A stretch of 64,000 nt of DNA from Deltaproteobacteria bacterium TL4 (lineage in GTDB: Bacteria > SAR324 > NAC60-12). Positions 5,216 through 34,893 of the stretch are shown here, one piece after another (position 1 is the stretch's first letter; each line of letters starts with the position of its first letter). The notes under the pieces were generated by a model, which saw only the letters and a list, made by a program, of their open reading frames with translations, was not told the DNA's origin and ran no database searches. Location of the stretch: positions 1 to 64,000 of the forward strand of contig JBBCAX010000025.1 of the NCBI GenBank assembly GCA_051382335.1. Reading direction: 5' to 3'. A program made the translations under genes and the position numbers.

Positions 5216-7105
5216 ATGAAAGACAACAAGCCTCGTGAAGAAGGCGTTTCTTCAACAAAACTGAAACGCATACAAGCTGAAGAACAGATTGTGGAAATCA
5301 TCAGTGATTCCGGAGAAGGTGCCCAAACCGCAGGTCAGATTTTTGGTACCATCAACGCAAAAATGGGATATGGTGTTTGGACCGTTGAAATCATCCCGGC
5401 AGAAATTGAACCTCCGGCGAGATCACGCCAGGGGGCCAGTGGAAACCGTATTCGTTTTGGGACAAAGGCCATGACCAATGCGGGAGATACTGCGGATTTG
5501 GTTGTTGCGTTTAACGAGCAGGCTTTATACAGCCGTATTGATCAAAAGGGACTCAGAAAAGGGACTAAGGTCTTCATCGATCGTAAATGGGCGGACTCAA
5601 CCCAACCCGAGATTCGTGAAGACTATCGTGAAGCCTTGGAAGACTTTCGCAAACGAGGATACGAGATCTATGAAACCCCCATCGAAGAGGAGTGCTTGAA
5701 GCACATTACGGATCCAAGGCGAGGGAAAAATATGTGGGTGGTTGGAATGTTATGCGGTATTTACAGCCGGGATTTTGACTTGGTGAAGAAAGAAATCGAA
5801 GGTCGGTTCAAAAAAAAGGGAGACAAAGTCGTTGCGGTCAATTTGGCGTTGTTTCAATCAGGATACGAGTGGAGTCGGAAGAGTGTTGATTTCGAAGTGG
5901 AAGTCCCTGCCCGTGAAGACAAGACGGTCAAAGTTGTGATGAATGGAAACCAAGCCATCGCCTTGGGATGTATGGCCGCGGGAATTGAAGTTTGCTCCAT
6001 GTACCCGATTACTCCGGCAACCTCCGCCTCTCACCACTTGGCGACCTATTTTCACAATGTTGGTGGCTTTGTGCATCAAGCTGAAGATGAAATTGCGGCC
6101 ATCGGTTTCGCGATAGGAGTCTCTTACGCTGGAAAGACACCGGTGACGATTACTTCTGGCCCTGGCATGGCTTTAAAAACAGAATTCATAGCACTGGCCT
6201 CAATGGCTGAGATCCCCTTGGTCGTCGTGGATGTCCAGCGAGGAGGTCCCTCCACGGGGTTACCCACTAAAGTGGAACAGGCAGACCTGTTATCCACACT
6301 GTATGGAACACACGGAGATGCTCCAAAAATTATTATCGCCCCCTCAACCATTGAAGAATGTTTTCACTTCATCATCATGGCCCGCAAACTGGCAGAGTCC
6401 TTCAGAATACCGGTATTTGTTCTGACAGACGCCAATTTGGCAACAGGAGTTCAACCTTTTCCACGACCGGAATTGAGTGAAGACTGGTTATCGCTACCCG
6501 TGGACCAAAGCCCTTGGAATCCTGAAATCAAACCCTATCAATGGGATCCTGAAACCGGAATTTCACAACGCCCCATTCCTGGGCAGCGAGACGGAATGTA
6601 TGTTCTGACAGGGTTGGCACACAATGAAAAGAGTCACATTGCGTATGACTCTGAAGCCAATCAACATGGGATGACCATGCGCAGCAAAAAACTGCATACC
6701 TTACAAAAGACCTTAAAAGCTCCCGTCGTCCATGGAGACGATAAAGGCGATCTGTTGGTAGTGGGCTGGGGTTCCACCAGAGGAAGTATTGAAGAAGCGG
6801 TAGACCGCCTTCGTGCTACAGGCAAGAAGGTCTCTTCACTCCACCTCCGATTCCTTTCCCCAATGGAAAAAGACTTGGGGGATATATTTAAAAAATTCAA
6901 AAAGGTCATGACGGTGGAAATCAATTACAGTGACCCGGCAAATGATCCGGGTTGGAGTTCCGAACAGCGAACCTATGCCCAGTTGGCAATGATGCTTCGA
7001 GCCAGAACTCTCGTTGATATCGACTGTTGGTCCAGAGTTCCAGGTTATCCATTACAACCCTCTGAAGTTAAAGATGCCATTGCTAACGTTTTAGAACAAA
7101 TATAA
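5216..7105 (+). CDS. 2-oxoacid:ferredoxin oxidoreductase alpha subunit (gamma-alpha fusion, KorA-like)
   Basis: DSGEGAQTAG N-domain, intact YPITP, QAEDEIAA, TSGPG, QRGGPSTGLPT and GWGST motifs. Confidence 0.92.
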   Translation: MKDNKPREEGVSSTKLKRIQAEEQIVEIISDSGEGAQTAGQIFGTINAKMGYGVWTVEIIPAEIEPPARSRQGASGNRIRFGTKAMTNAGDTADLVVAFNEQALYSRIDQKGLRKGTKVFIDRKWADSTQPEIREDYREALEDFRKRGYEIYETPIEEECLKHITDPRRGKNMWVVGMLCGIYSRDFDLVKKEIEGRFKKKGDKVVAVNLALFQSGYEWSRKSVDFEVEVPAREDKTVKVVMNGNQAIALGCMAAGIEVCSMYPITPATSASHHLATYFHNVGGFVHQAEDEIAAIGFAIGVSYAGKTPVTITSGPGMALKTEFIALASMAEIPLVVVDVQRGGPSTGLPTKVEQADLLSTLYGTHGDAPKIIIAPSTIEECFHFIIMARKLAESFRIPVFVLTDANLATGVQPFPRPELSEDWLSLPVDQSPWNPEIKPYQWDPETGISQRPIPGQRDGMYVLTGLAHNEKSHIAYDSEANQHGMTMRSKKLHTLQKTLKAPVVHGDDKGDLLVVGWGSTRGSIEEAVDRLRATGKKVSSLHLRFLSPMEKDLGDIFKKFKKVMTVEINYSDPANDPGWSSEQRTYAQLAMMLRARTLVDIDCWSRVPGYPLQPSEVKDAIANVLEQI

Positions 7106-7115
7106 GGAGTCCCCC

Positions 7116-8069
7116 ATGTTAGGTATGAAAGCAGATTGGTTATATGAACCCCGTCCGAGACATTTTGTATTGAATGACTATGAGGGCGCGGAGGCAAGAT
7201 GGTGTTCCGGATGCGGCGATCACGCTGTTTTGAATGCGGTTCAACGTCTTGCGAGAGATGAGCAAATTGCGCCTGAAAAAATGGTCAATGTTTCTGGAAT
7301 TGGATGTTCCGGACGTTTTTCACACTATATGAAAACCTACGGCTTTCACGGACTGCACGGAAGAGCCTTGCCTGTCGCCTGCGGAGTCAAAAGCCGACGC
7401 CCTGATTTGAAAGTATTCGTCTCCACCGGAGATGGAGACTGCTGTTCAATTGGAACCGGACATTGGATTCATGCGATCCGTTACAACATGGATATGGTGA
7501 TTATGCTGTTTGATAACCATATCTACGGTTTGACCAAGGAGCAAACCTCTCCAACAACGAACAAAGGCGCGACTTCCAAAACACACCCCAGGGGAGCGTT
7601 TTTAGGTGCGATGAACCCCATCAGTGTCACATTAGGAATCACCAACGCGTCCTTCGTCGCGCAAACTGTGGATTGGAATCCGCCTCACCTTTATGAAACC
7701 ATAAAGGCAGGATACCGACATAAAGGTACGGCCTTTATTCGTATTTTTCAAAGATGTCCTCATTTTACCTCCAGCGTCTTTGACGCTTATCAAAAAGATC
7801 CTTCCTTGATACAACTGATGACGCACAAAGAGGGGATTCCTTTGGATGATGCGGTATTGAAAATGTTTAAAAATCGAGTGGAGCATGACCCTTCCAATCT
7901 TGTGGAAGCGCATGATCTTGCGAATAACAACGAACAGTTGCCTATTGGTTTGTTTTACAGAAACGCTGATGCCGATCGGTATGATGAGTATTCCGCACAA
8001 GGTATGGGTAAAACCAACGCTGAAAAACTGGAAGCCCTTGAAAAAGAGCTGGACCGGTTTAGTGTTTGA
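7116..8069 (+). CDS. 2-oxoacid:ferredoxin oxidoreductase beta subunit (TPP-binding, KorB-like)
   Basis: WCSGCGD, SGIGCS, HGRALP, TPP motif GDGD...DNHIYGLTK and QRCP. AGGAG RBS. Confidence 0.92.
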   Translation: MLGMKADWLYEPRPRHFVLNDYEGAEARWCSGCGDHAVLNAVQRLARDEQIAPEKMVNVSGIGCSGRFSHYMKTYGFHGLHGRALPVACGVKSRRPDLKVFVSTGDGDCCSIGTGHWIHAIRYNMDMVIMLFDNHIYGLTKEQTSPTTNKGATSKTHPRGAFLGAMNPISVTLGITNASFVAQTVDWNPPHLYETIKAGYRHKGTAFIRIFQRCPHFTSSVFDAYQKDPSLIQLMTHKEGIPLDDAVLKMFKNRVEHDPSNLVEAHDLANNNEQLPIGLFYRNADADRYDEYSAQGMGKTNAEKLEALEKELDRFSV

Positions 8070-8101
8070 TTGATTCCTGACCTTATTTTATTCACTTAAA
8101 C

Positions 8102-8155
8102 GCGGACGCCTTTCTCCTAAGATTGTACCTAAAATTGAGGAAAAAAGGGGTCTGC
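8102..8155. other. Intra-operon stem-loop after the beta subunit
   Basis: gcggacgcctttctcct pairs imperfectly with aggaaaaaaggggtctgc. No U-tract. Confidence 0.45.
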
Positions 8156-8177
8156 CTTAACTCGTTATTGAAACGCT

Positions 8178-10550
8178 ATGACAGCCCCTATCACAAACAA
8201 TGATCAAAATGCCTTTGAGCCGCTTGTAAAATTTCACCTCAAAGGAAGCTCTCGTGCTCCGCAGAGTACATCCAACAAGATGTTTGCTCCCGCAGTGCTT
8301 CACGCGCTTCAAAATCCGCGAAATTTTTATCAGCATTACCCCTTGATTTTCATTCCGGCACTCAATAAGGAAACGAAGATGACCGTAAGGCCTTTGAGTG
8401 GATACATTGAAGAAATGTTTTCAGCTCAAAATGACCTTTCCATTTTATCCAAGAATGTGTTGTTCTTTGTGCAAACCCTTGCGCAAAACCTGAGTGCGGC
8501 AACAACCTCCGTCCCTCTGTCCCAAGTTCTCAAAACTGTGATTCCAGCGTTCCTTAAGGGCATGGACTTATCAGGAGCAGGGCAAAAGGATTTGCAGCAG
8601 GAGTGTGATCGATTTGCGGCTAGAGTTGATGTCAAAGCCTTGGTTTTGGGATTAAATCAGCAGACGTTATTAACACTATACACCCATCTTCTTGGAGAAG
8701 AACGTCGATCTCGTCAAACCCGATTTGCGGCGGAAGTCAAAAAACTGGCATCAGAACTTGAGAATCTGATTCGTGTCGATCACAACCTTTCAAAAGAGGG
8801 TGCGTCTTCACAAGCCATTTCTGGGGCTTTGGGAAATTATTCCAGTGCCTTCCTTGAATCAGGAGCTTTAGCTCAGTCACTCCCAGGAAAAAAAGGCTCC
8901 CTCAGACTATCTTCAGAACGCAAAGAAAGGATAGAGTCTTCGTTGGCTCTGCTTGAAACCTTTTTGTCACAGCCTGAGGAGAAAAGTTATTTGGTACACT
9001 CCGCGTCCCTTGGTGTTAATGCGGAACTTCCCCTACAGCCCCTTGTCGAAAAAGCGGATTGTTTGGCAAAATCGTTACAAACGTTTGAAGCCCTGATTGA
9101 TGAACGGATTAAGGTTTTCAAAGCGGTTCGCCTTGCACGGTTAGAAGTTTCCAATCAATACGAAGCCCATCAGCATCATGATCTTTTTGAGTCCTTCCAG
9201 TGGGAAGATTGTTCTGCGGAAGAGCTCAACCTTCTGCCGGATGTGCTTGTGGTGGAAACAGCCTCTCAAATTCAGAAGAACTTTATCCATTCCTTTTTTC
9301 AGGTTCTGTCCTCCAAGTACCCTGTTCGCCTGCTGATTCTGGATCCTCCTCAAGAAAACCTGCTCCAAGCGAAAATAGACTTGGGGGATCTTGCGATGAC
9401 TCAACGGGATGTGTTAGTTATTCGAAGCTCATTGGCTCGACCTCAACACCTGGTGGAAGGGCTGATCCGAACCTTCAGTGAAAAACAGAGCACCGTCATG
9501 GTGGTGAGTTCTCCCTCATGGAAAGACTTGTCTCAGGACTGGCTTTATATGGAAACCGCCTTGCAAAGCAGGGCAACATCGGTCTATCGCTATGATCCTA
9601 TGGAAGGACACACTTGGGCTTCTCGCTTCAGTTTAGCAGGAAACCCTCAAGTTGAAGCACCGTGGCCTCTGCAAACCGTCTCCTTTATGAACGCAAAAGC
9701 TGCGGAAGAGACCGTGGTGATTCCCTTCAGTTATGCGGATTTTATCGCGTTGCAGCCGGAATTTCAGCACCATTTTCAGGTCATGGAGGCTTCACTGAGA
9801 ATCCCTGAGTTGATTCCGATCACAGAATACCTTCAACTTTCCGAATCCGAACAGCGGAACAAGCTCCCTTTTATTTGGATGCTTGATGAAAATCGGCAAC
9901 TCCGACAAGCCCTTCTGACGTATGATATCGCCAGGATCGCCCAAACGCAGCACCACAAATGGTTGATGATTCAAGAGCAGGGAGGCATTCATAACGAGTA
10001 CGCCCGTCAGGCTGCGGAATCCGCAAAATTAAAGGTAGAAGCAGGAGCAAACGCAGCCCTTGAAGCTCTGAAGACAGAGCACGAGAAGGCCTTACTGCAA
10101 GCACAAAAAGAGGCAGGCAAAACGACCATGGAACGTTTGGCCCGTGTTCTGATGAACCTCGAAGAGGGCGCTGTCGCGGCACCAAGATCACAGTCCACCG
10201 TTTCGCCAGTGCAGCCTTCATCAACACCAGAGACCGCCCGTGCTCCGAAAGAAGAATCCAAAGTTCAAGACGTCCCTGTTGTAGAAAAAGACGAAGCTTT
10301 GGTGGCTGAGGCGTATATTGATTCCATGTTGTGCACGAGTTGCAATGACTGTTTCAAAATCAACCCCCAACTTTTCAAGTATGATTCCAACAATCAGGCC
10401 TATATTGAAGATGCAACCATGGGAACCTTTGCGGATCTGGTTAAGGCGGCGGCAGCCTGCCCTGCCCGTTGTATCCACCCTGGAAGTCCAAGAAGTGATG
10501 ATAAAACGGTGACTAATGAGCTTTTAGAAAAAGCGGCACAATTTAACTAG
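8178..10550 (+). CDS. Uncharacterised protein: degenerate PFOR C-terminal-like region, coiled coil, flexible linker and C-terminal ferredoxin
   Basis: C-terminal CTSCNDC...CPARCIHPG. The middle region aligns by eye with the C-half of 11408-15688. Confidence 0.7.
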   Translation: MTAPITNNDQNAFEPLVKFHLKGSSRAPQSTSNKMFAPAVLHALQNPRNFYQHYPLIFIPALNKETKMTVRPLSGYIEEMFSAQNDLSILSKNVLFFVQTLAQNLSAATTSVPLSQVLKTVIPAFLKGMDLSGAGQKDLQQECDRFAARVDVKALVLGLNQQTLLTLYTHLLGEERRSRQTRFAAEVKKLASELENLIRVDHNLSKEGASSQAISGALGNYSSAFLESGALAQSLPGKKGSLRLSSERKERIESSLALLETFLSQPEEKSYLVHSASLGVNAELPLQPLVEKADCLAKSLQTFEALIDERIKVFKAVRLARLEVSNQYEAHQHHDLFESFQWEDCSAEELNLLPDVLVVETASQIQKNFIHSFFQVLSSKYPVRLLILDPPQENLLQAKIDLGDLAMTQRDVLVIRSSLARPQHLVEGLIRTFSEKQSTVMVVSSPSWKDLSQDWLYMETALQSRATSVYRYDPMEGHTWASRFSLAGNPQVEAPWPLQTVSFMNAKAAEETVVIPFSYADFIALQPEFQHHFQVMEASLRIPELIPITEYLQLSESEQRNKLPFIWMLDENRQLRQALLTYDIARIAQTQHHKWLMIQEQGGIHNEYARQAAESAKLKVEAGANAALEALKTEHEKALLQAQKEAGKTTMERLARVLMNLEEGAVAAPRSQSTVSPVQPSSTPETARAPKEESKVQDVPVVEKDEALVAEAYIDSMLCTSCNDCFKINPQLFKYDSNNQAYIEDATMGTFADLVKAAAACPARCIHPGSPRSDDKTVTNELLEKAAQFN

Positions 10551-10564
10551 GGACAAGAGGACGC

Positions 10565-11374
10565 ATGGCTCAGATGGTACTCACCGCCGTCATCATTATG
10601 TCGGGGTTAGCCTGTATTTTTGGAATCATTCTCGCGATAGCTTACCGCTTTCTCCGTGTGGAAGAAGACCCTCGCATAGAGATTGTCGAATCAATGCTTC
10701 CTGGAAATAACTGTGGTGCTTGTGGAGAACCTGGATGTCGCGCTTTTGCGACCAAACTGGTATCCTTGCAGGTAATGCCGGCGAAGTGTACAGTCAGCAG
10801 TGCCGGTGGCATTAAAGCAATTGCCGAGTTTTTAAATGTTGACGCCGGTTCCGTAGAAAAACGTGTGGCACGAATTCACTGTGCGGGAGGCAAAGGGTTG
10901 GTCAAAGAACTCGCTCAATATACGGGAAAAGAATCCTGTGCCGCCGAGTACTTGGTCAATGGAGGAAACCGTGCTTGTGCCTGGGGTTGTCTGGGCCTTG
11001 GCGACTGTGAAGATTCCTGTACTTTTAATGCCATACACATGAACGCAATAAGACTCCCTGTGGTCGACGTTGACCGTTGTACCGCCTGTGGGGATTGCGT
11101 GGATGCCTGTCCCATCAACCTCTTCAGGATTGAGCCTCTTTCCCAGAAACTGATCGTTCAATGCAATTCACCCCTGGAAGGGGAAGCTGCGCGAAGTGTT
11201 TGTGCCGTGGCATGTGATGCCTGTGGACGGTGTGTTTCGGACTCCGGTCTTGGCGTTCTTGCAATGCAGGGAGGACTGCCCCGAATTCTAAAACCTGAAG
11301 CAACTTCAGCCTCCGCAACCCTTCGTTGTCCGACAGGTGCGATACAATGGGTTGAAGATGAGCAATTTAAATAA
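10565..11374 (+). CDS. rnfB: Rnf complex subunit B
   Basis: N-terminal TM anchor, VEEDPR, LPGNNCGACGEPGC, CAWGCLGLGDC, CTACGDCVDACP. Confidence 0.92.
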   Translation: MAQMVLTAVIIMSGLACIFGIILAIAYRFLRVEEDPRIEIVESMLPGNNCGACGEPGCRAFATKLVSLQVMPAKCTVSSAGGIKAIAEFLNVDAGSVEKRVARIHCAGGKGLVKELAQYTGKESCAAEYLVNGGNRACAWGCLGLGDCEDSCTFNAIHMNAIRLPVVDVDRCTACGDCVDACPINLFRIEPLSQKLIVQCNSPLEGEAARSVCAVACDACGRCVSDSGLGVLAMQGGLPRILKPEATSASATLRCPTGAIQWVEDEQFK

Positions 11375-11407
11375 CCTAAGAGCCAACTTTTTTTTACAGG
11401 AGAAATT

Positions 11408-14400
11408 ATGCCCAGTCCTAGTCTTTTTTTGGATTTGACTCCATTAAAGGATGATCACACCCTTGCAACAGGAGGATCCGCGTTATGGTCCATTGAATCC
11501 AAAATATGTGATCATATTTGCCTGGAAAAAGCATTAGCTCCTTCGCCTTTAGTGCCCTCTCCCCCCATGCCTGAGTCAAATCTTTTCAATCGCCCCTTTC
11601 GTGTTTCTAAATTTTCAGATGCGGAAAATGGGTTTGGCCTGGCCATGGGTTTAGGCGTTACAGGAAAACGGGTAGCGCTATGGCTCACAGGGTCGCAGTT
11701 GGCAAAACTTCAAATCATGTTGACAGAAACCGTCAATCGTCATATTCCTTTGGTTTGCCATGTCATTAATGGTTCCATCAACCGTCGTTTGAGTTCGACA
11801 GGCGGAGGACACCAAGGCTATCATGCGCTTTCTGAAACGGGGGCATTTCAGTTGTATGCCCGGAATGTGCAACATGCTGTCGATTTAGCGATTGTCCTGC
11901 GAAAAGTTGCGGAACAAGCCCTGATCCCCGGAGTTTTGGCGACAGATGCCTCAGAAACAGCCTTTGCACTAGAAACGCTTTCGCTGCCGGGTTCTGGATT
12001 CCTCAAAGATTTTATTCATTCGCCTAAACAATCCATCCCCAGCCAAACACCAAGTCAGCGGTTCTTATTTCATGAGAAACGTCGGCAAATTCCACAATGG
12101 CTTCATTGGGATACTCCTTGCGCACAGGGTTGGCCCATGGAAGGGTTGGATTACGCAACCTCTCGTGCGGGACATCATATTTTCCATGAAGATCCTTTGA
12201 TGATGATGGCACAGACGGTCATGACAGAGTTGTCCGCAATCACAGGAAGGCCGTTAGCCTTCATAACACGATATCAGCTTGGCGATGCTGAGCACATCAT
12301 CGTCGCCCAGGGCCACGCCGTAGAAACCGCAGAAACCGCGGCCAATTATTTGCGAAGTACCAAAGGTTGGAAAGTCGGTGTTCTTGGGATTGTATGTCTT
12401 CGTCCATTTCCTGCGGATTTGATTAGAAAGGCGATTCCGAACGCCAAAAATATTACCATTTTGGAACGCACCGAACCTCAAGCTCCGGCACAACTCCCTC
12501 TGAGAAGAGAGATTGCTTCCTTGTTTACGGGGACGAATGTTCGCCTTCTTTCCGGGGTTTACGGACTGGGAGGACAACCCTTCGCTCTTTCCCAAATGCT
12601 TGCGGTTTATGAAAATATGAATCAGGGGTCAGGCGCTCAGGAAACTGTGGTGTTAGGAATATCCACAGCAAATAAGGTTTCTGAGTATCCTAAGCGGCAA
12701 ATGTTGCTTCAATCGCTTCACAACGATTACCCAAAACTGGACAAGCAGGTTCTGCCTGAAGGAAAACGGTTTAATACCAACGGCGAAACCACTCGAAGTG
12801 TTTCCCTCTACACCCATCATCATGATCTTGCTCCAGACACGTTACAGTTGCTGGCACAAGCCCTGGCAAAACAAAACGGACCCCACGTCAAGAGTAGTAT
12901 CATCCTTGCGGAACGGGGATTTTGGTGTGGACGGGTTATGGCAAATCCAAACCCTATTCAAAGTCAGGGGAATGAGTATCCCACCGACATCACCCTTGTG
13001 ACGCGACTGGACGTACCTTCCTCAATCAGTCCTTTCCATTTAGCCCATATTGGAAAAGTGATCATTGCCTCAACGCTTGAGGACAGTACCTTGGCGACAC
13101 TCGTTTTACGGACTTTACATAAAGACGCACACTTGGGGCAGGGGAAATTTTATCGATTCAAAGGAACCGGTTCTGAGCTCATCAAGACCTTTGCGCAAGC
13201 ACCTCAAGCTCTTCAGAATCAAATTACGGAGCTTGTATTAGCGACAGCACAAGCTTCCCCTTCAGAGGTAGAGCCGCCTGCCTTTTTGAAGGCGAACATC
13301 CAGACGAGTCAGACCTATGACAGTCTCCCTAAATATTGGGGAGAATTTCTTCAGCCTCGCATTGAAGGAGAGATGCAGCACCCAATTCCTTCACCACGCG
13401 TCACCCTGGGCACACTCCCGTCGAGTACTGCGGCGTTTATGGATAAAACACCCATGCGTCAACAGACACCCAGTTTGAATAAATCCGTCTGTACGGGATG
13501 TGGAAACTGCTGGACTTCCTGTCCTGACTCCGCCTTTGGAACTGTGACGTTTGTAACCGAAAAATTACTCAGTGCTGTTGCCGAATCAGTTCATGGGACA
13601 CAAGTAACCAGTGATAGTATTGAAGGAAAACTCAAACGGGCCTATCGCAACCTGGCAACACGAATCAATCGCAACCTTGACCAAAGAGCAGGGCAAACGT
13701 TGACAGAAGAATTAATCCAGGAGGCCTTTGTGGGGTTACTTGAAAAACTCAATGTTTCAGAGGGGGAACGGCCTCAATACCAAAACAGTTTTAACGCGAT
13801 TTCCAAGAAACTGCTGGAACTTCCGCTTGTGGTTTCTCAATCGTTGTTTTACGACCAGGAGCACGCAAATAAGGGCACTGGAGAAATTTTGTTCCTTGCC
13901 ATTAACCCCAACACCTGTCAAGGTTGTGGTGTTTGTCAGGAAGTTTGTCCTGAGCAAGCGATCACGATGCCGCTTCAAACCACTTCGATGATCCAGGAAA
14001 TGCGGCAAAATTGGAAAATCTGCGAAGACTTGCCTGATACGGACAAAGCCTCGATTGAAACGTTGAAAAACTCATCCTTAGGAGTTTTGGCCTCCCTCTT
14101 CTTATCAAGACACTGTGCCCAAAGCCTTTCAGGTGGAACAGACGTCGAGGCAGGCTCAGGCGCACAACTTGCGCTAAGATTAGTCACAGGGATCACCGAA
14201 TATACGATGCAACATCAAATAGGTGCGTATGTTCAAACGCTGAAGCAGCTAAAAACACAAATCAAAAAGAAAATCAAAGAATTGATTGCGGACTCTGTCC
14301 CTATGGGTAATTTAGGCTTACTGGATGAAGCCTTGGCGGAACTCACAGGAAACAAAACACCCTTGTCCGAAGTTGTCGATAAGATCAAAACGACGGGTGA

Positions 14401-15688
14401 GACCTCAGTCGTTGACTTGTCTCAACTCAAGCATTTTACCCATTATTTCCATCAAGTAGAACACATTGAAAATCAAATTCTGAGCGGGAAAAGTGGTTTC
14501 GGCCGGGCAAGATATAGTTTGATCCTTGCGTCACAATTGTTATACGAACAAACGTATTACCCGCTGAACCCTTATCAAGTCCCGGTTTTGCTGGATTTAT
14601 CCACCAAAGGGGTCAGTCTTGCGTTAGGTGCGGTTGAAGGCTTGATTCAAGCTTATGTTGAAGAAGTCCGACAGGTACGAGTCATCAGCCAAGCCCTGCA
14701 ATCTTCTCCCAAAATCGCGGAACAAGATCCTTCAATTAACAAGCTTTCATGGCAGAATCTCAGTCCGGAAGAGAAACAGGCATGTCCGCCCATTTTGTTA
14801 GTTTTGGATGATGAAACTCTCAGCAACCAACCCCTGAGAGGATTATCCGAATTACAATCTTCGGGATATCCAATAAAAATTATTATTTTGGATGAAAAGG
14901 AAAATTTTCTGGATCAAACAGACCCGACCCTCATCGCCATAGCGAATCGAAAGGCGATGGTCCTTTCCAGCTCCTTGGCACACGCGCGACACCTTGGACA
15001 GGGTCTATTGAAAGCGATGAGTTCCTCTCAACCTTCGTTCGTTCACCTCTATACACCGAGCCCCAGTCGGCATGGGTTTGTTCCTAAGAACATGATCCAA
15101 CAGGCAAAAATGGCTGTTGCGTGCGGAGTTCATCCTTTACTGAGTTATGATCCGCAACAAGAGGGGGTCTTGGGGCTTAGAATTGAGCTGGCGATGGATG
15201 ACGCTGTGCGTATTTCAGGATCTGAGGCTTTTAAGTCAACCGTGTTGAACCTGGTTCACTGGGCCTTTACGGAATCCCGTTTTTCAAAAAGTTTTAACGC
15301 CCTCAAAGAGGGGAATTCGCTTTCAAACGGTCTCGATATTGAAGTATGGATTCAACTGTCTCCAGACCAAAGGAAGAGTAAGGAACCAACCTTGTCCTTG
15401 CTTGACGGTCGAGTCTTCCAGGTTTCCAGAGAGCTTGCTGAGGCAGCCGTTATCCGACAGGAAATGAACTTGACGCTGCAGGAACTTGCGGGAATCGCTT
15501 CACCCTTTACAGCCAGAATACGAGGTGAGTTGGAAGAAGAGTTAAAACAAAAAGCCTCAAAAGAAACTGTGATTCTTAAAAGCCAGCATGAGAGTGAAAT
15601 ACAGCAGGTCCGATTAGCTCAACAGCAGGAACAAGTGAAGTTGCTGTCACAACGGTTACTGGATCTATCCCAGTTGGAAGTCAATTGA
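11408..15688 (+). CDS. Single-chain PFOR (NifJ)-like protein with degenerate catalytic motifs and two intact [4Fe-4S] motifs
   Basis: PFOR-type segments (ARNVQHAVDL, KVGVL..LRPFP, GVYGLGGQ, LYTPSP) and CTGCGNCWTSCP / CQGCGVCQEVCP. No YPITP and no GDG TPP motif. Confidence 0.8.
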   Translation: MPSPSLFLDLTPLKDDHTLATGGSALWSIESKICDHICLEKALAPSPLVPSPPMPESNLFNRPFRVSKFSDAENGFGLAMGLGVTGKRVALWLTGSQLAKLQIMLTETVNRHIPLVCHVINGSINRRLSSTGGGHQGYHALSETGAFQLYARNVQHAVDLAIVLRKVAEQALIPGVLATDASETAFALETLSLPGSGFLKDFIHSPKQSIPSQTPSQRFLFHEKRRQIPQWLHWDTPCAQGWPMEGLDYATSRAGHHIFHEDPLMMMAQTVMTELSAITGRPLAFITRYQLGDAEHIIVAQGHAVETAETAANYLRSTKGWKVGVLGIVCLRPFPADLIRKAIPNAKNITILERTEPQAPAQLPLRREIASLFTGTNVRLLSGVYGLGGQPFALSQMLAVYENMNQGSGAQETVVLGISTANKVSEYPKRQMLLQSLHNDYPKLDKQVLPEGKRFNTNGETTRSVSLYTHHHDLAPDTLQLLAQALAKQNGPHVKSSIILAERGFWCGRVMANPNPIQSQGNEYPTDITLVTRLDVPSSISPFHLAHIGKVIIASTLEDSTLATLVLRTLHKDAHLGQGKFYRFKGTGSELIKTFAQAPQALQNQITELVLATAQASPSEVEPPAFLKANIQTSQTYDSLPKYWGEFLQPRIEGEMQHPIPSPRVTLGTLPSSTAAFMDKTPMRQQTPSLNKSVCTGCGNCWTSCPDSAFGTVTFVTEKLLSAVAESVHGTQVTSDSIEGKLKRAYRNLATRINRNLDQRAGQTLTEELIQEAFVGLLEKLNVSEGERPQYQNSFNAISKKLLELPLVVSQSLFYDQEHANKGTGEILFLAINPNTCQGCGVCQEVCPEQAITMPLQTTSMIQEMRQNWKICEDLPDTDKASIETLKNSSLGVLASLFLSRHCAQSLSGGTDVEAGSGAQLALRLVTGITEYTMQHQIGAYVQTLKQLKTQIKKKIKELIADSVPMGNLGLLDEALAELTGNKTPLSEVVDKIKTTGETSVVDLSQLKHFTHYFHQVEHIENQILSGKSGFGRARYSLILASQLLYEQTYYPLNPYQVPVLLDLSTKGVSLALGAVEGLIQAYVEEVRQVRVISQALQSSPKIAEQDPSINKLSWQNLSPEEKQACPPILLVLDDETLSNQPLRGLSELQSSGYPIKIIILDEKENFLDQTDPTLIAIANRKAMVLSSSLAHARHLGQGLLKAMSSSQPSFVHLYTPSPSRHGFVPKNMIQQAKMAVACGVHPLLSYDPQQEGVLGLRIELAMDDAVRISGSEAFKSTVLNLVHWAFTESRFSKSFNALKEGNSLSNGLDIEVWIQLSPDQRKSKEPTLSLLDGRVFQVSRELAEAAVIRQEMNLTLQELAGIASPFTARIRGELEEELKQKASKETVILKSQHESEIQQVRLAQQQEQVKLLSQRLLDLSQLEVN

Positions 15689-15714
15689 TGCTTAGTGAAT
15701 TTTAGCGTCTAAGT

Positions 15715-15861
15715 GTTAAATTAGCTGGCCACAATCAGCGTTTCGTCAAAAGGCAGTAATCTTTGAAATCCGGCTTCGGCGCCGCTCAGCCTGCGAGGCG
15801 GTTCCCTGAGCGAAGTCGAAGAGGACTTGGCGAAATGAGGAGAATGGCCAATTAACTCAAC
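15715..15861. mobile_element. MITE-like element with imperfect terminal inverted repeats and an internal palindrome
   Basis: gttaaattagctggcca (15715-15731) versus tggccaattaactcaac (15845-15861), 13/17 complementary. Inner cttcggcgccgctcag / ctgagcgaagtcgaag hairpin (15774-15821). Confidence 0.45.
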
Positions 15862-15888
15862 TATTCAAACAATAACGATTAAGGATTC

Positions 15889-17232
15889 ATGGGATTTCGG
15901 TTTTCATTTCAAAAAGCATCAACGTTCAGGCATGGTGTCCATCCTGAAGAGTATAAGGAAGATACAGAACATCTGCCTATTGAACGGATGCCCTTCGTCG
16001 ATGAATTCATTTTACCGCTTTCTCAGCATACGGGAAGCCCCGCGAAACCGGTGGTACGTCCTGGAGATAAAGTGACCCGAGGGCAACTCATTGCTCAACC
16101 CGATGGTTTTATCTCCACAGCGATTCATGCACCGGTCACAGGAACGGTGACAAAAATTGAACTGCGGCCTCACTCCAATGGACAATTAGCCTTGTCGATC
16201 ATCATTGCGGCAGATCCTTTTTCCAGCCAGCGATTTCAGGCAAATCCACCGCCACCTGTTGAAAACAGTTCGCCCAAAGAGCTTGTAGGGAGAATCCAGA
16301 ACGCGGGCATTGTCGGATTAGGAGGCGCCGCTTTTCCAAGCCACGTCAAATATAGCATTCCTGAAGGGAAAAAAGTTCGTTTTGTGATTCTGAACGGATG
16401 TGAATGTGAACCGTACCTGACCTGTGATCACCGTTTGATGGTTGAACGAGCCTCCGCTGTGATCAAAGGCCTTATATTTTCCATCCGGCTTCTCAATGCG
16501 GAAAGAGGTTACATTGGTGTGGAACTCAACAAGCCCGATGCCCTAGCGGCCTTAAAAAAAGAAGCGGCGCCTTATCCCAACATTGAAATTGTCCCGCTCA
16601 ATGTGAAATACCCTCAAGGCGCGGAAAAAATGCTGATTGATGCGGTTTTGAAACAAGAGGTGCCTCCTGGGAAACTGCCTTTAGATCTGGAAATCGTGGT
16701 CAATAGTGTCGCAACCGCGGCAGCCATGATTGATTTTTTCGAAACAGGGTTGCCCTTAATTGAACGGGTTGTTACCGTTAAAGGCCCTGCGGTACCCAAC
16801 CCCAAAAATATAATTGTGCCTTTGGGTACTCCAATTTCTAAAGTTTTGGAACATTGTGGTGTTGATTTGGAGTCCCTCGGAACAGTCATCCTGGGAGGCC
16901 CCATGATGGGTAAAGCGCAAAAAAATCTGGAAGCCTCTGTGATTAAAGGGACGTCTGGAATTTTAGCTTTTTACGAATTACCCACGCCCCCACTAGAAGA
17001 ACAACCGTGTATCCGGTGTGGACGCTGTTTAAACGCATGTGCCATGTTTCTCAATCCCTCCTTGCTTGTGCCGATAGTCAGAGCCGGGCTAGTGGAGGGG
17101 TTGAAAGAGCATCACCTCTTGAGCTGTTTTGAATGTGGTTCCTGCTCTTTTGTTTGTCCATCAAATATCCCGCTAACTCAATATATGGTGTTAGGCAAAG
17201 CCTTGTTAAAAAAGAAAGGGAGGAAAGCGTGA
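15889..17232 (+). CDS. rnfC: Rnf complex subunit C
   Basis: HGVHP, LSQHTG, AGIVGLGGAAFPSHVK, NGCECEPYLTCD, YPQGAEK, GGPMMG, CIRCGRC and CFECGSCSFVCP. Confidence 0.95.
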   Translation: MGFRFSFQKASTFRHGVHPEEYKEDTEHLPIERMPFVDEFILPLSQHTGSPAKPVVRPGDKVTRGQLIAQPDGFISTAIHAPVTGTVTKIELRPHSNGQLALSIIIAADPFSSQRFQANPPPPVENSSPKELVGRIQNAGIVGLGGAAFPSHVKYSIPEGKKVRFVILNGCECEPYLTCDHRLMVERASAVIKGLIFSIRLLNAERGYIGVELNKPDALAALKKEAAPYPNIEIVPLNVKYPQGAEKMLIDAVLKQEVPPGKLPLDLEIVVNSVATAAAMIDFFETGLPLIERVVTVKGPAVPNPKNIIVPLGTPISKVLEHCGVDLESLGTVILGGPMMGKAQKNLEASVIKGTSGILAFYELPTPPLEEQPCIRCGRCLNACAMFLNPSLLVPIVRAGLVEGLKEHHLLSCFECGSCSFVCPSNIPLTQYMVLGKALLKKKGRKA

Positions 17233-18224
17233 AAAAACCATCAGCCTTGACCATTGCGACGGGGCCTTTTTTAAACAAAGGTTTAAGCACCACCGCCCTC
17301 ATGTGGGAAGTAGTGATGTCCTTGCTTCCCATCGTACTGGTATCCATCTATTTTTTTGGCATCTCCGCAATCCTGGTTATTGGAACCACCGTTATGGCGG
17401 CAGCGTTAACCGAATGGTATTTTAGCCCTCAACGTTCCTTTCCGGGTACTCTCAAAGATGGCAGCGCTGTTCTGACAGGCGTATTGCTGGGCTTGACGCT
17501 TCCTCCCGCCATTCCGCTTTGGATGGCTCTCATCGGTGGGATGATGGCCATCACGATGGGAAAACTGATATGGGGAGGCTTGGGCTTCAATCGTTTCAAC
17601 CCCGCACTCTTGGGACGTGCCTTTTTGCAAGCAGCTTTTCCGGGAGCCATGACCACCTGGACCGCCCCTCGTTCAGGGTTTTTTACTCTAGATCCTCAAA
17701 CCTTCGCCTTACCTTTGATGCATGTTCCGGTTGACGGTTTTTCATCAGCGACACCACTTGGTCAAGCTAAATTTGAAGGAATCCTGACCAATCACTGGTC
17801 CTTATTATGGGGGAATACGGGAGGAACCTTGGGAGAGACCTGTGCCGTGTTGATTATTTTAGCAGGGCTTTGGCTGGCGTTCCGCAGGGTTTTTGATTGG
17901 CGATTGCCTCTTGCGACACTGTTATCGGCTGTCATTTTCAGTGGTCTGCTTTATCTGATTTCTCCTGATAAGTACCCTGACCCCCTTTTCATGTTTTTAT
18001 CGGGAGGACTCCTCTTTGGTACCGTGTTCATGGTGACTGATCCGGTAACCACCCCTGTCACGGCAAGTGGAATGTGGATCTTTGGAATCGGGGTTGGCTT
18101 CTTAGTCATCTTGATTCGTCTTTTTGGAGGTTTACCTGAAGGGATGATGTTTTCCATTCTTCTGATGAATAGCATCACTCCGCTCATTGACCGTTACACC
18201 CAACCACGACCGTTTGGAGGATGA
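17229..18224 (+). CDS. rnfD: Rnf complex subunit D
   Basis: Polytopic, GGLGFNRFNPAL, covalent FMN site SSATPL, GGTLGET, TDPVT. GTG start overlaps the rnfC stop (GTGA). Confidence 0.93.
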   Translation: MKKPSALTIATGPFLNKGLSTTALMWEVVMSLLPIVLVSIYFFGISAILVIGTTVMAAALTEWYFSPQRSFPGTLKDGSAVLTGVLLGLTLPPAIPLWMALIGGMMAITMGKLIWGGLGFNRFNPALLGRAFLQAAFPGAMTTWTAPRSGFFTLDPQTFALPLMHVPVDGFSSATPLGQAKFEGILTNHWSLLWGNTGGTLGETCAVLIILAGLWLAFRRVFDWRLPLATLLSAVIFSGLLYLISPDKYPDPLFMFLSGGLLFGTVFMVTDPVTTPVTASGMWIFGIGVGFLVILIRLFGGLPEGMMFSILLMNSITPLIDRYTQPRPFGG

Positions 18225-18853
18225 TCATGGAACAACGTTCTCCACAATCGTATCAACTGATACTGTCACTCACTATTGCCGGATTCATCACAGGGATTGC
18301 CCTCTCTGTCATCTTTAAAGTCACTCAACCGATGATTCAATTCCATCGCATGGAAGCCATCAAAAAAGCGATTTTTCGAGTTTTACCAGGAACCATGACT
18401 TACAAAACCTTGTTAGTAACCCCCAGTGGTCTTGAAACCTTGCCCGATTCCAGGAAAAATGACCAGGAGGCGGAACGGATTTATCTGGGAATGAACGAAG
18501 CCGGTGAAACCGTGGGATTTGCGGTCCCTGCCCAAGGTTCAGGATTTATGGATACTATTTCGTTGATGTACGGATATCAATCCACCTCTCATAAAATTGT
18601 GGGATTAGAAGTTCTGGAACATCGGGAAACCCCGGGACTTGGTGATAAAATCGGGAAGGATCTCGATTTTGCGCGTAATTTCAAAAATCTCCTTGTTGAT
18701 CCCAAGATTATGTTGGTAAAAAAAGGGAAAAAAACCCAGGAAAATCAAGCAGACGCCATTAGCGGCGCCACGATTTCCTCGGATGCTGTGATTAAAATAT
18801 TGAACAACGCTCAAATTCGTTACTCAAAACTCATTCATAACTATCAGGAGTAA
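18221..18853 (+). CDS. rnfG: Rnf complex subunit G
   Basis: N-terminal TM, ETPGLG, FMN-attachment DAISGATISS. Confidence 0.92.
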   Translation: MIMEQRSPQSYQLILSLTIAGFITGIALSVIFKVTQPMIQFHRMEAIKKAIFRVLPGTMTYKTLLVTPSGLETLPDSRKNDQEAERIYLGMNEAGETVGFAVPAQGSGFMDTISLMYGYQSTSHKIVGLEVLEHRETPGLGDKIGKDLDFARNFKNLLVDPKIMLVKKGKKTQENQADAISGATISSDAVIKILNNAQIRYSKLIHNYQE

Positions 18854-18855
18854 CT

Positions 18856-19533
18856 ATGGCCCTGGATGAAAAAAAATCGCACAAAGAAGAATTTATCAAA
18901 GGTATCTGGAAAGAGAATACGATCTTTGTCACTGTTTTGGGGCTGTGTCCTTCCCTTGCAGTGACCAACTCCCTCATCAACGGCATCGCCATGGGACTGG
19001 CGACACTGGCGGTCTTGATGGGAGCCAGTTTGTTAGTATCGGCACTGAGAAAGGTTATTCCTAAACCTGTACGGATTTCTCTTTATATCCTCATTATCGC
19101 AACCTTTGTGACGGTTGTTGATTTTTCACTTGCCGCGCTTTTTCCTCAAATTCACAAAGCTTTGGGAGCGTTTATTTCTCTGATTGTTGTCAACTGTCTC
19201 ATTCTTGGACGTCAAGAGGCGTTTGCCGCTAAAAATCCAGTCAGTCTCTCTCTGGCGGATGCGGCAGGGATGGGACTTGGTTTCACTATTGCCCTGGTCA
19301 TGATTGGCGGCATTCGTGAAATACTGGGAAGTGGTTCCTTATTGGGCTTTCCTCTGTTTGGAAGCAATTTTGAGCCTTGGGTCATTATGGTCTTACCTCC
19401 GGGAGGCTTTTTCACCATGGCGACCTTGCTACTGATTTTCGCAAAAATGAAACAAGCGTCTATCACACGAAAAGAACAGCAGGGTGGTACCGAAAAAGAA
19501 CCTGCCGTCACTCAAAAAGAATGGGGGGTCTAA
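18856..19533 (+). CDS. rnfE: Rnf complex subunit E
   Basis: LGLCPSLAV, LIVVNCLILGR, IREILG, LPPGGF. Confidence 0.93.
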   Translation: MALDEKKSHKEEFIKGIWKENTIFVTVLGLCPSLAVTNSLINGIAMGLATLAVLMGASLLVSALRKVIPKPVRISLYILIIATFVTVVDFSLAALFPQIHKALGAFISLIVVNCLILGRQEAFAAKNPVSLSLADAAGMGLGFTIALVMIGGIREILGSGSLLGFPLFGSNFEPWVIMVLPPGGFFTMATLLLIFAKMKQASITRKEQQGGTEKEPAVTQKEWGV

Positions 19534-20108
19534 TGGAAAAGTTAATTTGGATCTTTTTTTCCGCCAGCATTATCAATAATTTCACACTCACCTATTTCCT
19601 GGGTTTGTGTCCCTTCTTTGGAGTCAGTGGACGCCTTGATACCGCATTAAGAATGGGGCTGGCCAATATTTTTGTATTGGTCATCACTTCTATTTGCGCC
19701 TGGTTTCTCAACGCCTTTGTCCTGCCCTATGCCCCTTATCTGCAACTGATCAGTTTTATCTTTTCCATTGCTGGCATCGTTCAATTTACGGAAATGGTCA
19801 TCAAAAAACTCAGCCCTGCGCTCTTTGAGGCACTGGGAATTTTCCTCCCGCTGATCACTACAAACTGCTGTATTCTGGGCTTGGCTTTATTCCAGGTCAA
19901 CCGAGGATACAATTTTCTTGAAGGGATTGTCTTTGCTGTTGGTGCCGGTGTTGGACTCACGCTAGCCATGCTCATTATGGCCGGAATTCGCAAAGATGCC
20001 GAGTTAGCCAGAATTCCAGCCTTAGTCAAAGGTGCCGCCATGAATTTCTATATTGCGGGAATTCTGTCACTCGCCTTTATGGGGTTTGCGGGCTTATTCA
20101 GCAAGTAG
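19533..20108 (+). CDS. rnfA: Rnf complex subunit A
   Basis: NNFTLTYFLGLCPF, LGIFLPLITTNC, LAFMGF. ATG overlaps the rnfE stop (TAATG). Confidence 0.93.
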   Translation: MEKLIWIFFSASIINNFTLTYFLGLCPFFGVSGRLDTALRMGLANIFVLVITSICAWFLNAFVLPYAPYLQLISFIFSIAGIVQFTEMVIKKLSPALFEALGIFLPLITTNCCILGLALFQVNRGYNFLEGIVFAVGAGVGLTLAMLIMAGIRKDAELARIPALVKGAAMNFYIAGILSLAFMGFAGLFSK

Positions 20109-23363: not shown

Positions 23364-23397
23364 AGCCTTCAGGACACCTTTCAAGTATTTATAAAAG

Positions 23398-23427
23398 CTT
23401 TTCATGGGCTGATTCCCTATGAAAAAG
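23398..23427. terminator. Hairpin between the two cytochrome genes
   Basis: cttttcatggg-ctgatt-ccctatgaaaaag inverted repeat. Confidence 0.35.
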
Positions 23428-23491
23428 GTGGGATCGTTATTATTTTGAGATATTACCAAGTCCTTATTTCATTAATATTAAAGGAGTGTTT

Positions 23492-32245: not shown

Positions 32246-32815
32246 TCAGCTTTCTTTAGAAGAAAGCTCAGCCTCAGCGGATACTACCTGATTCTCAACG
32301 GTTTCAACCCCAGAGGCAGACACTTCATGCGATGGAACGTCTGGCTTTATTTCCTGAGTCATCTCCTGGCTTACTTCTTTCAACACAGAAGCCTTTTCAA
32401 GAGTATCAACCCTTTTGCGAGTCTTAGGTTTTTTGATAGCTGAGAGCACATCCTTCGGACTATCAACGAGCTGTATGATCGCCATTTCTGCACCATCACC
32501 CAGTCTACGCTTCCCAATTTTAATGATCCTGGAATACCCGCCATTACGATCCTTGTAACGTTCAGCCATTTCATCAAAAAGTACAGCTACCACATCTTTG
32601 GATTTAATATAACTCAGAGCTTGTCGACGAGCATGCAAATCCCCCCGCTTTGCCAAAGTAATCATCTTATCCAGAGGAGTGCGTAATTCCTTTGCCCTCA
32701 TCAATGTACAATAAATTTCCTGGTGTTCTATTAGGGAAGTTACGAGGTTCCTCATCATTGCTCTTCGATGAGACGTCGTAACACCAAGTCGCCTTCCCGC
32801 TTTCAAATGTCTCAT
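32246..32815 (-). CDS. rplQ: 50S ribosomal protein L17 with C-terminal extension
   Basis: [25 protein letters not shown]. Confidence 0.97.
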
Positions 32816-32839
32816 AATCTACCTTGAAGACTCATATAG

Positions 32840-33880
32840 TTAGTAGCCCAGCTTTTTCTTTTTTTCAGTCGGTGAGTTTTTGGGATCAAAATTTTCAAGC
32901 TTCATTCCCAGTGACAGTGACATAGATGCTAAAATCGTCTTGATCTCATTGAGAGATTTCCGACCAAAGTTTTTGGTCTTCAACATCTCTGCTTCTGTTT
33001 TTTGAACCAAATCTCCAATGGTTTCAATCTTCGCATTCTGTAAACAGTTGATAGAACGCACTGAAAGTTCAAGCTCGCTCACACTACGATAGAGATTTTC
33101 ATTGTATTGAGGAACTTCCTCCACCTCTTCAGGCTCAGGCTCAACAATTTGTTCATCAAAGTTGATCAGAACTTCTGTATGCTCCTTGATAATCTTCGCA
33201 GCATAAGCCAATGCATCCTCTGGAGCACAGGAACCATTGGTCCATAGTTCAAAAATCAAACGATCATAATCCGTTTTCTGCATATAACGAGCATTTTCAA
33301 CCTCATAATTGATCCGTGTAATTGAAGAGTGATTTGAATCAATGTAGATTGTATCATGAGGAAGCTCAAACTTTTGATTTTCTTCCGATGTGACATACCC
33401 CTTGTTTTGACGTACATACATCGTCATACTTAATGTTGCTTGATCTTCCAGGCGTGCAATCGGCAAATCAGGATTAAGAATTTCAACCTTATTGAAAGTA
33501 GATATATCACGCGCAGTTAAAGTACACGGTCCTTGACCAATCAACTCAATTTCTATCTCTCCCGGGACTAATTGCTTGATCTGAAGTTCTTTAATGTTTA
33601 GAATAATCTCAATAACATCTTCCACAACACCTGGAATATGCGTAAATTCGTGACTCACCCCTTCGATATTTACAGCAAACACAGCACTGCCCCAAATCGA
33701 AGACAACAAGACCCTACGCAAAGCATGCCCCATGGTTACGCCATAACCCGGTTCCAAGGGTTCCAAAATAAACTTCCCATAAGAAGGCGATAAGCTACTG
33801 GAGTCGACTTGCACACGCTTCGGTTTTGCAATAGACATCCAGTTGTTGACAAACATGTTTTCTGTTTCTTCATTTGACAT
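32840..33880 (-). CDS. rpoA: RNA polymerase alpha subunit
   Basis: EPLEPGYGVTMGHALRRVLLSS, LSVRSINCL, NFGRKSLNEI. Start uncertain (ATG 33880 chosen). Confidence 0.97.
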   Translation of the reverse strand: MSNEETENMFVNNWMSIAKPKRVQVDSSSLSPSYGKFILEPLEPGYGVTMGHALRRVLLSSIWGSAVFAVNIEGVSHEFTHIPGVVEDVIEIILNIKELQIKQLVPGEIEIELIGQGPCTLTARDISTFNKVEILNPDLPIARLEDQATLSMTMYVRQNKGYVTSEENQKFELPHDTIYIDSNHSSITRINYEVENARYMQKTDYDRLIFELWTNGSCAPEDALAYAAKIIKEHTEVLINFDEQIVEPEPEEVEEVPQYNENLYRSVSELELSVRSINCLQNAKIETIGDLVQKTEAEMLKTKNFGRKSLNEIKTILASMSLSLGMKLENFDPKNSPTEKKKKLGY

Positions 33881-33948
33881 GATTTCCCCAGAAATATAAT
33901 GGAGGTTAACTTTGTATTTTGAACCTGACAATCCTCAAGGAAGAACCT

Positions 33949-34338
33949 TCAAATACGTCTTTGCTTAGGAGGGCGACAACCATTGTGAGGAACAGGAGTG
34001 ACATCGCGAATACTGGTCACCTTAATACCTTCCGCAGCAATCGCTCGCAAAGCAGACTCCCTTCCAGCACCTGGACCTTTTATTCGAACTTGCACTTCTT
34101 TCATGCCGACTTCCCTAGCTTTCTGAGTCGCATCTTCGGCCGCAATTTTTGCGGCATAGGGAGTACTCTTTCTTGAGCCTTTAAATCCGTGGAGACCCGT
34201 ACTAGACCAAGCAATCATATTCCCCCGAACATCGGTCACAGTAACAATGGTATTGTTAAAAGAGGCCTGAATATGAACAATTCCTTGCTCCACAACCCTC
34301 TTTTCTTTCTTTTTCGTAGGACGTTTACCTGCTGCCAT
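33949..34338 (-). CDS. rpsK: 30S ribosomal protein S11
   Basis: [26 protein letters not shown]. Confidence 0.97.
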
Positions 34339-34362
34339 AAAATTCGTTCTCACAATGGAAGA

Positions 34363-34731: not shown

Positions 34732-34744
34732 ATTGACTCCTGCT

Positions 34745-34858: not shown

Positions 34859-34893
34859 ACAAACCTCTGTAGCTTGAGTAATTCAATAACTTG

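Follow-up and report, generated by a model that had tools for sequence, protein, structure and literature searches.

The closest described relatives of the locus reported here are the Rnf complex, the one-subunit pyruvate:ferredoxin oxidoreductase (PFOR) of the NifJ type (6CIN, 1B0P; TIGR02176), and the two-subunit 2-oxoglutarate:ferredoxin oxidoreductase (OGOR) KorAB (Magnetococcus marinus 6N2N; Sulfolobus 5B46/5B48). The locus is a block of ten open reading frames (ORFs) at positions 5216..20108 of the window, which is the whole 64-kb stretch of DNA analyzed (positions 1 to 64,000 of contig JBBCAX010000025.1, Deltaproteobacteria bacterium TL4, lineage SAR324). All ten are on the + strand, in the order korA-korB-X-rnfB-Y-rnfC-D-G-E-A. 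X (790 amino acids, aa) and Y (1426 aa) are almost certainly pseudoenzymes, as judged from their residues, and, by sequence, their ancestor is a long PFOR whose own gene lies in rnf operons. It is reasonably probable that they form a dedicated electron link between KorAB and Rnf, acting as docking and relay subunits.

All six Rnf subunits and the order B-C-D-G-E-A are common to the Rnf complex and the block, which differs in having a dead PFOR of 1,200–1,600 aa between B and C and korAB-X before B. The only extra Rnf subunit named in the accessible part of PMC12174285 is RnfH. With the one-subunit PFOR, Y shares the domain order, the fold, and the cysteines of domain V, whereas it has lost the thiamine, substrate, coenzyme A (CoA), and proximal-cluster motifs and gained three helical insertions and a long tail helix; X corresponds to the C-terminal half only, plus a ferredoxin. 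The two-subunit OGOR has the same domain order, catalytic motifs, and single cluster as KorAB of the block and needs an outside ferredoxin, which in the block X, following korB in 61/63 loci, would supply on a tether. The nearest relative in the tree is the long PFOR (e.g., loci L012, L097, L106-L185), with the insertions, the tail, and the place before rnfC as in X and Y; in contrast to them, it keeps all catalytic motifs. As far as found, the long PFOR itself is uncharacterized, and no long, Rnf-linked, or dead PFOR forms appear in the accessible parts of the 2026 PFOR review (PMC13768988) or the 2025 Rnf review (PMC12174285). By this comparison, the block would consist of known parts in a new arrangement, an Rnf complex with dedicated pseudoenzyme partners.

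Parts of the arrangement have been published for symbionts (the papers are cited here for their accessible parts). In the Solemya velum symbiont, 'rnf2' has PFOR genes between rnfB2 and rnfC2, and pyruvate was suggested as the donor (PMC4287430). In the Escarpia laminata symbiont, korA, korB, por-like, rnfB, por, sucC, and sucD form a transcribed cluster (PMC6315080 Table S1), and in the 'rTCA cycle cluster 2' of tubeworm symbionts (rTCA, reductive tricarboxylic acid), por was treated as active (PMC6315080). In the Riftia symbiont, KorA(3) (−2.62), KorB(3) (−2.57), and an adjacent 'PFOR-like ferredoxin' (−1.91) fall together, while the rTCA operon rises (PMC11636981); by name and position, the 'PFOR-like ferredoxin' would be X. 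The PFOR of 'rnf2' and 'rTCA cycle cluster 2' is taken as active, and the catalytic loss, the spread over many phyla, and the wiring are not stated in those parts of the papers. Among open-licence papers, no statement was found on a dead state or wiring role of PFOR paralogues in rnf operons. The first-pass annotation, made from the window sequence, had called the system undescribed: gene order and transcription are in print for symbionts, and what was not found in print is the catalytic loss and the wiring role. Even without the wiring, a 'PFOR' counted as CO2-fixing in tubeworm symbionts has no catalytic residues in the checked loci (L065, L078, and L084, from related tubeworm symbionts and not the genome of PMC6315080), which affects metabolic models.

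The features of the block are as follows.

5216..7105, + strand: korA; TIGR03710, 539.5 bits (cut-off 482.75); best PDB match 6N2N, 1.6e-86
7116..8069, + strand: korB; TIGR02177, 234.9 bits, below the cut-off of 261.9; PDB matches 5B48/5B46/6N2N
8178..10550, + strand: X, 790 aa, by profile (1e-134 to 1e-139 against long PFORs) and fold a truncated dead long-PFOR copy; layout: Cys-less domain V remnant, helical insertions, dead domain VI, long tail helix, linker, ferredoxin
10155..10310, + strand: linker of X, Ala/Glu/Pro-rich, predicted flexible; predicted local distance difference test score (pLDDT) <50 over most of residues 663–706
10311..10547, + strand: tethered single-cluster ferredoxin of X (C719, C722, C725, C761), predicted from PF13370 and PDB ferredoxin I 1DAX (6e-5)
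10565..11374, + strand: rnfB, membrane-anchored polyferredoxin; TIGR01944, 68.9 bits (cut-off 68.7); PRK07118, 1e-53
11408..15688, + strand: Y, 1426 aa, apparently a near full-length dead long-PFOR copy without ferredoxin tail; TIGR02176, 123 bits (cut-off 911)
13490..13522, + strand: first retained Fe-S motif of Y, C695–C705; Cys in 55, 52, 52, and 56 of 56 Y
13916..13948, + strand: second retained Fe-S motif of Y, C837–C847; Cys in 56, 54, 54, and 53 of 56 Y
14147..14158, + strand: degenerate proximal-cluster motif of Y, ExxS against CxxC of active enzymes; E in 46/56, S in 43/56, Cys in 0 and 1
15770..15822, no strand: palindromic repeat in the Y-rnfC gap, genome-wide, resembling repetitive extragenic palindromic elements; 16-mer with 46 genome matches
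15889..17232, + strand: rnfC; TIGR01945, 495.6 bits (cut-off 245.95)
17229..18224, + strand: rnfD, likely start GTG 17229 from the start context; TIGR01946, 307.2 bits
18221..18853, + strand: rnfG; TIGR01947, 102 bits (cut-off 102); SGAT motif at 181
18856..19533, + strand: rnfE; TIGR01948, 220.9 bits
19533..20108, + strand: rnfA, likely start ATG 19533; TIGR01943, 216.4 bits, below the cut-off of 229.3; PF02508, 7e-50

Residues of Y were counted in an alignment of 56 operon-encoded Y proteins, comprising that of the window and all of at least 1,150 aa from the loci (shorter ones were excluded); the alignment also included two NifJ proteins and three long PFORs with intact motifs. The predicted structure of residues 1–1200 (mean pLDDT 84) has the PFOR fold and domain order, and Foldseek matched it to PFOR 6CIN at 3.5e-38. 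The thiamine-activating Glu was present in 0/56, the Thr of YPITP in 1/56, the Asn in 3/56, and the Asp of GDG in 17/56; the four proximal-cluster Cys ligands were retained in 0, 1, 0, and 2 of 56, and the CoA-binding loop of domain III was lost in 54/54 (deleted in 17). Erosion is strongest in domain III, where identity to the long PFOR is 10%, and the cluster motifs are the best kept (44–54%), with the eight domain V cysteines retained in 52–56 of 56 Y, depending on the position. It is very improbable that Y is an active PFOR feeding Rnf, or has a new catalytic activity: the name PFOR is given to it in two papers and by automatic annotation, the overall fold is kept, the substrate-site Arg is retained in 32/56, and the ExxS replacement is conserved, but the losses of Glu, proximal cysteines, Asn, and CoA loop extend to L065, L078, and L084, where Y has no catalytic residues, and the host genome has a separate intact nifJ PFOR.

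No PFOR match was obtained for X in Pfam or NCBIfam, and Pfam recognized the C-terminal ferredoxin only (PF13370, residues 714–767). Its relation to PFOR was seen when a profile of 80 X was compared with the C-terminal half of long PFORs (1e-134 to 1e-139), and in the AlphaFold model (mean pLDDT 89.7), for which Foldseek ranked PFORs first (top match 6CIO, 4e-7). The model has a long tail helix (607–658), a low-confidence linker (663–706), and then the ferredoxin; the linker is 50–70 residues long in 50/50 aligned X. The C-terminus has the single-cluster ferredoxin pattern, CxxCxxC plus a remote CP, and is predicted to bind a cluster, all four cysteines being invariant in 80/80 protein-search rows. 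The 790-aa form is without domains I–III, its proximal cysteines are retained in 1, 1, 2, and 0 of 50, and GDG is replaced in the profile alignment. This form appears to be a later truncation, because longer relatives keep PFOR domain II (a match in 10/16 of those scanned); 56/149 of the top X relatives have at least 1,100 aa. The smallest X core consists of the helical insertion and the dead domain VI. A word-indexed protein search gave 3 X relatives and a full search 800 at 1e-30, long PFORs included; a search of the Atlas returned 'hypothetical protein' clusters only, and no KorB-X or X-RnfB fusion occurred among 174 proteins. The earlier suggestion that both large proteins are PFOR-derived, catalytically dead, and furnished with Fe-S motifs is borne out by the lost and kept columns of Y and by the profile and fold of X. 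The same annotation had reported no small soluble ferredoxin gene. None was found within the gaps of the ten-gene block; however, X ends in a ferredoxin domain, which stands in for the missing soluble one, a point absent from that annotation, and contig C266 of the host genome carries a gene for a free ferredoxin of 85 aa.

The catalytic motifs of two-subunit 2-oxoacid:ferredoxin oxidoreductases (OFORs) are YPITP, Glu, and Arg in the alpha subunit and GDG..N and the cluster cysteines in the beta subunit; these motifs were counted in 60 (alpha) and 66 (beta) homologues. By sequence, the motifs of KorAB are intact. KorA has YPITP at 263, QAEDE at 288, and QRGGP at 341, kept in 58–60 of 60 homologues. 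KorB has the thiamine motif GDGD at 105 (GDGD..N; GDGD in 66/66 homologues), the proximal-cluster Cys motifs WCxGC and GIGCS, and HGR. The substrate is likely to be 2-oxoglutarate, since the closest solved structure to KorA is the M. marinus OGOR 6N2N, and sucC and sucD lie inside related blocks, between Y and rnfC, in 12 and 11 loci, respectively (among the best 80 of at least 579 X relatives). Two-subunit enzymes are without domain V and hold one cluster (PMC13768988, accessible part), so KorAB, itself without a ferredoxin domain, would need an outside ferredoxin.

The origin of X and Y was traced through loci encoding the intact long PFOR (1,630–1,700 aa, same insertions, ferredoxin tail), taken from metagenomes as the best 80 of 324. 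The long PFOR was directly before rnfC in 48/50 loci with room for the gene and near some rnf gene in 71/80. In a FastTree tree (domain VI onward, 61 rows, 510 columns, NifJ root; every third X and Y and every fourth long PFOR), X and Y were sister clades (0.998) and joined with the Rnf-linked long PFORs (0.989). Several intermediate arrangements were found: a long PFOR with Rnf alone (L097, L012); the same joined by korAB and an X that has no ferredoxin (L011, L109); an active-type tail-less PFOR with Rnf, korAB, and an X carrying the ferredoxin (L189-L191); a long PFOR whose tail (helix, linker, and ferredoxin) has become a 224-aa gene of its own following rnfA (L096:335-1006); and Y-Rnf with korAB-X behind it or elsewhere (L102, L104). 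Of these, the ancestral forms L011 and L012 occur in Gemmatirosa kalamazoonensis and Persicobacter psychrovividus, respectively. By gene content, the system falls into two modules, korAB-X and Y-Rnf; the first-pass annotation had noted neither this split nor the descent from an intact long PFOR of rnf operons. The tethered ferredoxin is on X in all complete X-Y loci and in L189-L191, on the long PFOR in L011 and L109, and in the separate gene in L096, so that every complete system seen keeps one somewhere. Since X goes with korB and Y with rnf, and the two sides share a single tethered ferredoxin per system, we infer a common complex, and this is the main ground for it. A ferredoxin-NADP reductase-like gene was also observed inside long PFOR-Rnf operons (L012:20680-21534, L096:5592-6533).

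A GTDB scan confirmed at least 579 X relatives, the best 80 of which were used for gene-order counts, each count taking in only loci with room for the gene(s) in question. They spread over about eight phylum-level groups: Bacteroidota, Gammaproteobacteria (including tubeworm and clam symbionts), Planctomycetota, Acidobacteriota, Myxococcota, SAR324, Fibrobacteria, and Kiritimatiellae. korB was directly 5' of X in 61/63 loci, rnfB directly after X in 70/76, rnfB and Y in 67/74, and the full order korAB-X-rnfB-Y-rnfC was seen in 33/40; three of the misses had sucCD inserted, which puts rnfC beyond the flank or elsewhere. Where X stood apart from rnfB-Y, 7/7 such genomes held Y or a long PFOR elsewhere, adjoining rnfC in 6. 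The linkage of X and Y homologues with rnf and korAB, for which a neighborhood survey had been proposed, was therefore found across phyla. Ratios of non-synonymous to synonymous substitution rates (dN/dS) were 0.09–0.25 for X (11 pairs), 0.08–0.31 for Y (12 pairs), and 0.02–0.10 for KorAB (close pairs); X and Y are under purifying selection. That they are decaying relics hitch-hiking in the operon is hardly credible. They do evolve much faster than their neighbors (mean identity 32–34% vs 57–64%) and lose whole domains, but the frames are open across phyla, dN/dS is well below 1, the folds are confident, the order is fixed, and in a symbiont the transcripts are at the korAB level (PMC6315080, accessible part). 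The correlation of X and Y distances (0.86) was the highest of any pair among seven proteins in 35 loci and was not used, as shared ancestry or rate explains it equally well. The system is real, widespread, conserved, mis-annotated, and uncharacterized.

In the proposed electron link, Y would stay on the Rnf side as platform and wire, like its active ancestor, and X would be the KorAB-side adaptor with a swinging ferredoxin, tying KorAB to Y. The tethered ferredoxin would take electrons from the single KorB cluster and hand them to RnfB, via the two clusters of Y or directly. In the host at low oxygen, 2-oxoglutarate would be oxidized to succinyl-CoA, electrons would pass from ferredoxin to NAD+, and ions would be pumped. 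This would save energy that is lost unused when the reaction is run by 2-oxoglutarate dehydrogenase, which is encoded separately; in sulfur-oxidizing autotrophs, the same machine may run backwards. The 2-oxoglutarate couple lies near −500 mV and that of NAD near −320 mV, enough for ion pumping. Both the physical contact and the direction of electron flow are suggested by gene content and sequence, and for the host, oxidation at low oxygen would rank first and reversal second. A predicted complex of X 158–659 and Y 923–1420 (50-row alignments) scored 0.11 against a mark of 0.32 and counts neither way. It is a more tentative possibility, somewhat short of even, that KorAB, X, Y, and Rnf form a stable membrane supercomplex, an ion-pumping 2-oxoglutarate:NAD+ oxidoreductase. 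The supercomplex might then add a new site of energy coupling to the citric acid cycle of bacteria that respire oxygen, and sulfur oxidizers might run it in reverse to fix CO2. In its making, a duplicated Rnf-bound PFOR may have been hollowed out, giving a platform for docking and a swinging arm that bears the ferredoxin. If the proposed link is right, many microaerophiles have an unrecognized means of saving energy at one step of the citric acid cycle, or of powering CO2 fixation, that needs no pool of free ferredoxin. Bacterial bioenergetics would then offer a clear example of pseudoenzyme subunits on the megadalton scale, for which living intermediates show each step of how they arose.

Several observations weigh against the electron link or its details. 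Because the cluster motifs are damaged in four of the 56 Y (L040, L044, L076, L082), the wire of Y is dispensable in some lineages, and X is without ferredoxin in some loci (L011, L109). The GTDB scan used ferredoxin-motif patterns and selects X with ferredoxin, so the sample is biased and the ferredoxin conservation circular. The X-Y sister grouping may be due to long-branch attraction. The long form is not Rnf-specific, since in one sister clade of intact long PFORs (L098-L101; ~1,700 aa, with the ferredoxin tail) the gene that follows encodes a GltD/Nfn-like reductase of 930–980 aa and is not rnf, and two long PFORs with 10-kb flanks (L127, L134) have no rnf nearby. No sucCD genes are present in the window's own block, where the substrate is inferred. 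In the host genome, the free ferredoxin on C266, a second Rnf, and Wood-Ljungdahl genes are present, and hence other routes and a reductive demand exist. Finally, the support consists of comparative genomics and two published transcript sets, and biochemistry was not found. Some of these points would fit a structural or protective role of X and Y, in assembly, in shielding from oxygen, in membrane localization, or in regulating KorAB, while free ferredoxin carries the electrons: forms of X without ferredoxin and of Y with broken clusters persist, the smallest X core retains only the insertion and the dead domain VI, and the host has a free ferredoxin gene. We consider this unlikely, as no part of Y is better kept than its Fe-S motifs, the four ferredoxin cysteines of X are invariant in the 80 rows, and one tethered ferredoxin occurs in every complete system seen.

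The host genome, listed as 100% complete and 2.6% contaminated, holds sucA, the intact nifJ, and a cbb3-like oxidase cluster, and no match to ATP-citrate lyase (PF16114), RuBisCO, or nifH was found in it. The separate canonical PFOR that the first-pass annotation had proposed to look for was thus present, and the rTCA marker was not. The host was set beside 49 other carriers with complete X and Y (50 in all; the carriers are listed without completeness values, and kin are not independent). A haem-copper oxidase-family gene was found in 49/50, a full sucA in 37/50, and the AclB domain in 11/50. With oxidase and sucA in most carriers and ATP-citrate lyase in few, oxidative energy conservation by the KorAB-X-Y-Rnf link is likelier, and the block was rejected as an rTCA marker. 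The same architecture could work in reverse, the ion gradient driving Rnf so that NADH reduces the tethered ferredoxin and KorAB carboxylates succinyl-CoA, for CO2 fixation or 2-oxoglutarate supply. This is rather unlikely for the host, although the AclB domain does occur in those 11 carriers, gammaproteobacterial carriers have a TfrA-like fumarate reductase upstream (10 loci), with sucCD within the block, the presence of sucA alongside would suit a division of labor by direction, and PMC6315080, in its accessible part, files the cluster under rTCA. Against it stand the 39/50 carriers without an AclB match, the host included, the lack of a RuBisCO match in the host, and the symbiont genes of Riftia, which move opposite to the rTCA operon (PMC11636981, accessible part). 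Many carriers are also labelled Bacteroidota or Myxococcota. These groups are mostly heterotrophs.

Other electron-transfer genes were observed in the carriers. In L023-L027, L037, L042, L065, L078, L084, and L087, genes for a TfrA-like flavoprotein and a 210-aa Fe-S protein and a NuoF-like ORF lie upstream of korA; these genes of the gammaproteobacterial blocks may together encode an NADH-linked fumarate reductase. The second Rnf of the host (C62:15737-22343) includes a gene of 760 aa that fuses RnfC-like and RnfD-like parts, and an RnfB-like gene of 712 aa. A Wood-Ljungdahl-type cluster (C96:14304-23020), with a 1,184-aa acetyl-CoA synthase-domain ORF and a CO dehydrogenase-like ORF, coexists with the cbb3-like oxidase, contamination being possible. 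An unusual OFOR cluster (C157:15233-24670, the same as L093:6234-15671) has KorA, a KorB-gamma fusion, a 485-aa polyferredoxin, a 756-aa gamma-alpha protein, and a 923-aa beta protein with a long N-terminal extension.

Within the window, all ten ORFs were found on the + strand in the order and at the positions that the first-pass annotation had given. The gaps are 10 nucleotides (nt) between korA and korB, 108 nt between korB and X, 14 nt between X and rnfB, 33 nt between rnfB and Y, and 200 nt between Y and rnfC, the 14- and 33-nt values being the same as first reported. From rnfC to rnfA they are −4, −4, 2, and −1 nt, with rnfD read from GTG 17229 and rnfA from ATG 19533. The Rnf set is complete: B, C, D, G, and E score at or over the NCBIfam cut-off, and A, below it, has RnfA as its best family. 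Thr motifs in RnfD and RnfG serve as FMN acceptors, and putative ones are present as SSAT and SGAT, respectively. The separation of rnfB from the other rnf genes, to which attention had been drawn, holds in that Y lies between rnfB and rnfC, but the position of rnfB was rejected as unusual in itself: rnfB before rnfC is the known order rnfBCDGEA in Bacteroidetes and Chlorobi (PMC3534657, accessible part), and Y is therefore an insertion into that order. The 200-nt gap was considered as an operon break and rejected, as it contains the palindromic repeat, whose 16-mer matches 46 times in the genome (at most one mismatch), often as facing pairs. The gap therefore says little on transcription, and the repeat is not part of the system. 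Promoter and terminator scans were at chance level (19 vs 18.2 and 17 vs 19.4).

Downstream of the block, at 20874–26311 and starting 765 nt after rnfA, are two large multihaem c cytochromes (829 and 941 aa), both of which carry a fused membrane domain of the cytochrome b type. Homologues were not flagged near the 80 related blocks, and the two genes are probably unrelated to the system. The minus strand at 32246–49082 carries an ordinary ribosomal protein superoperon (rpsL to rplQ, EF-G, EF-Tu, secY, rpoA).

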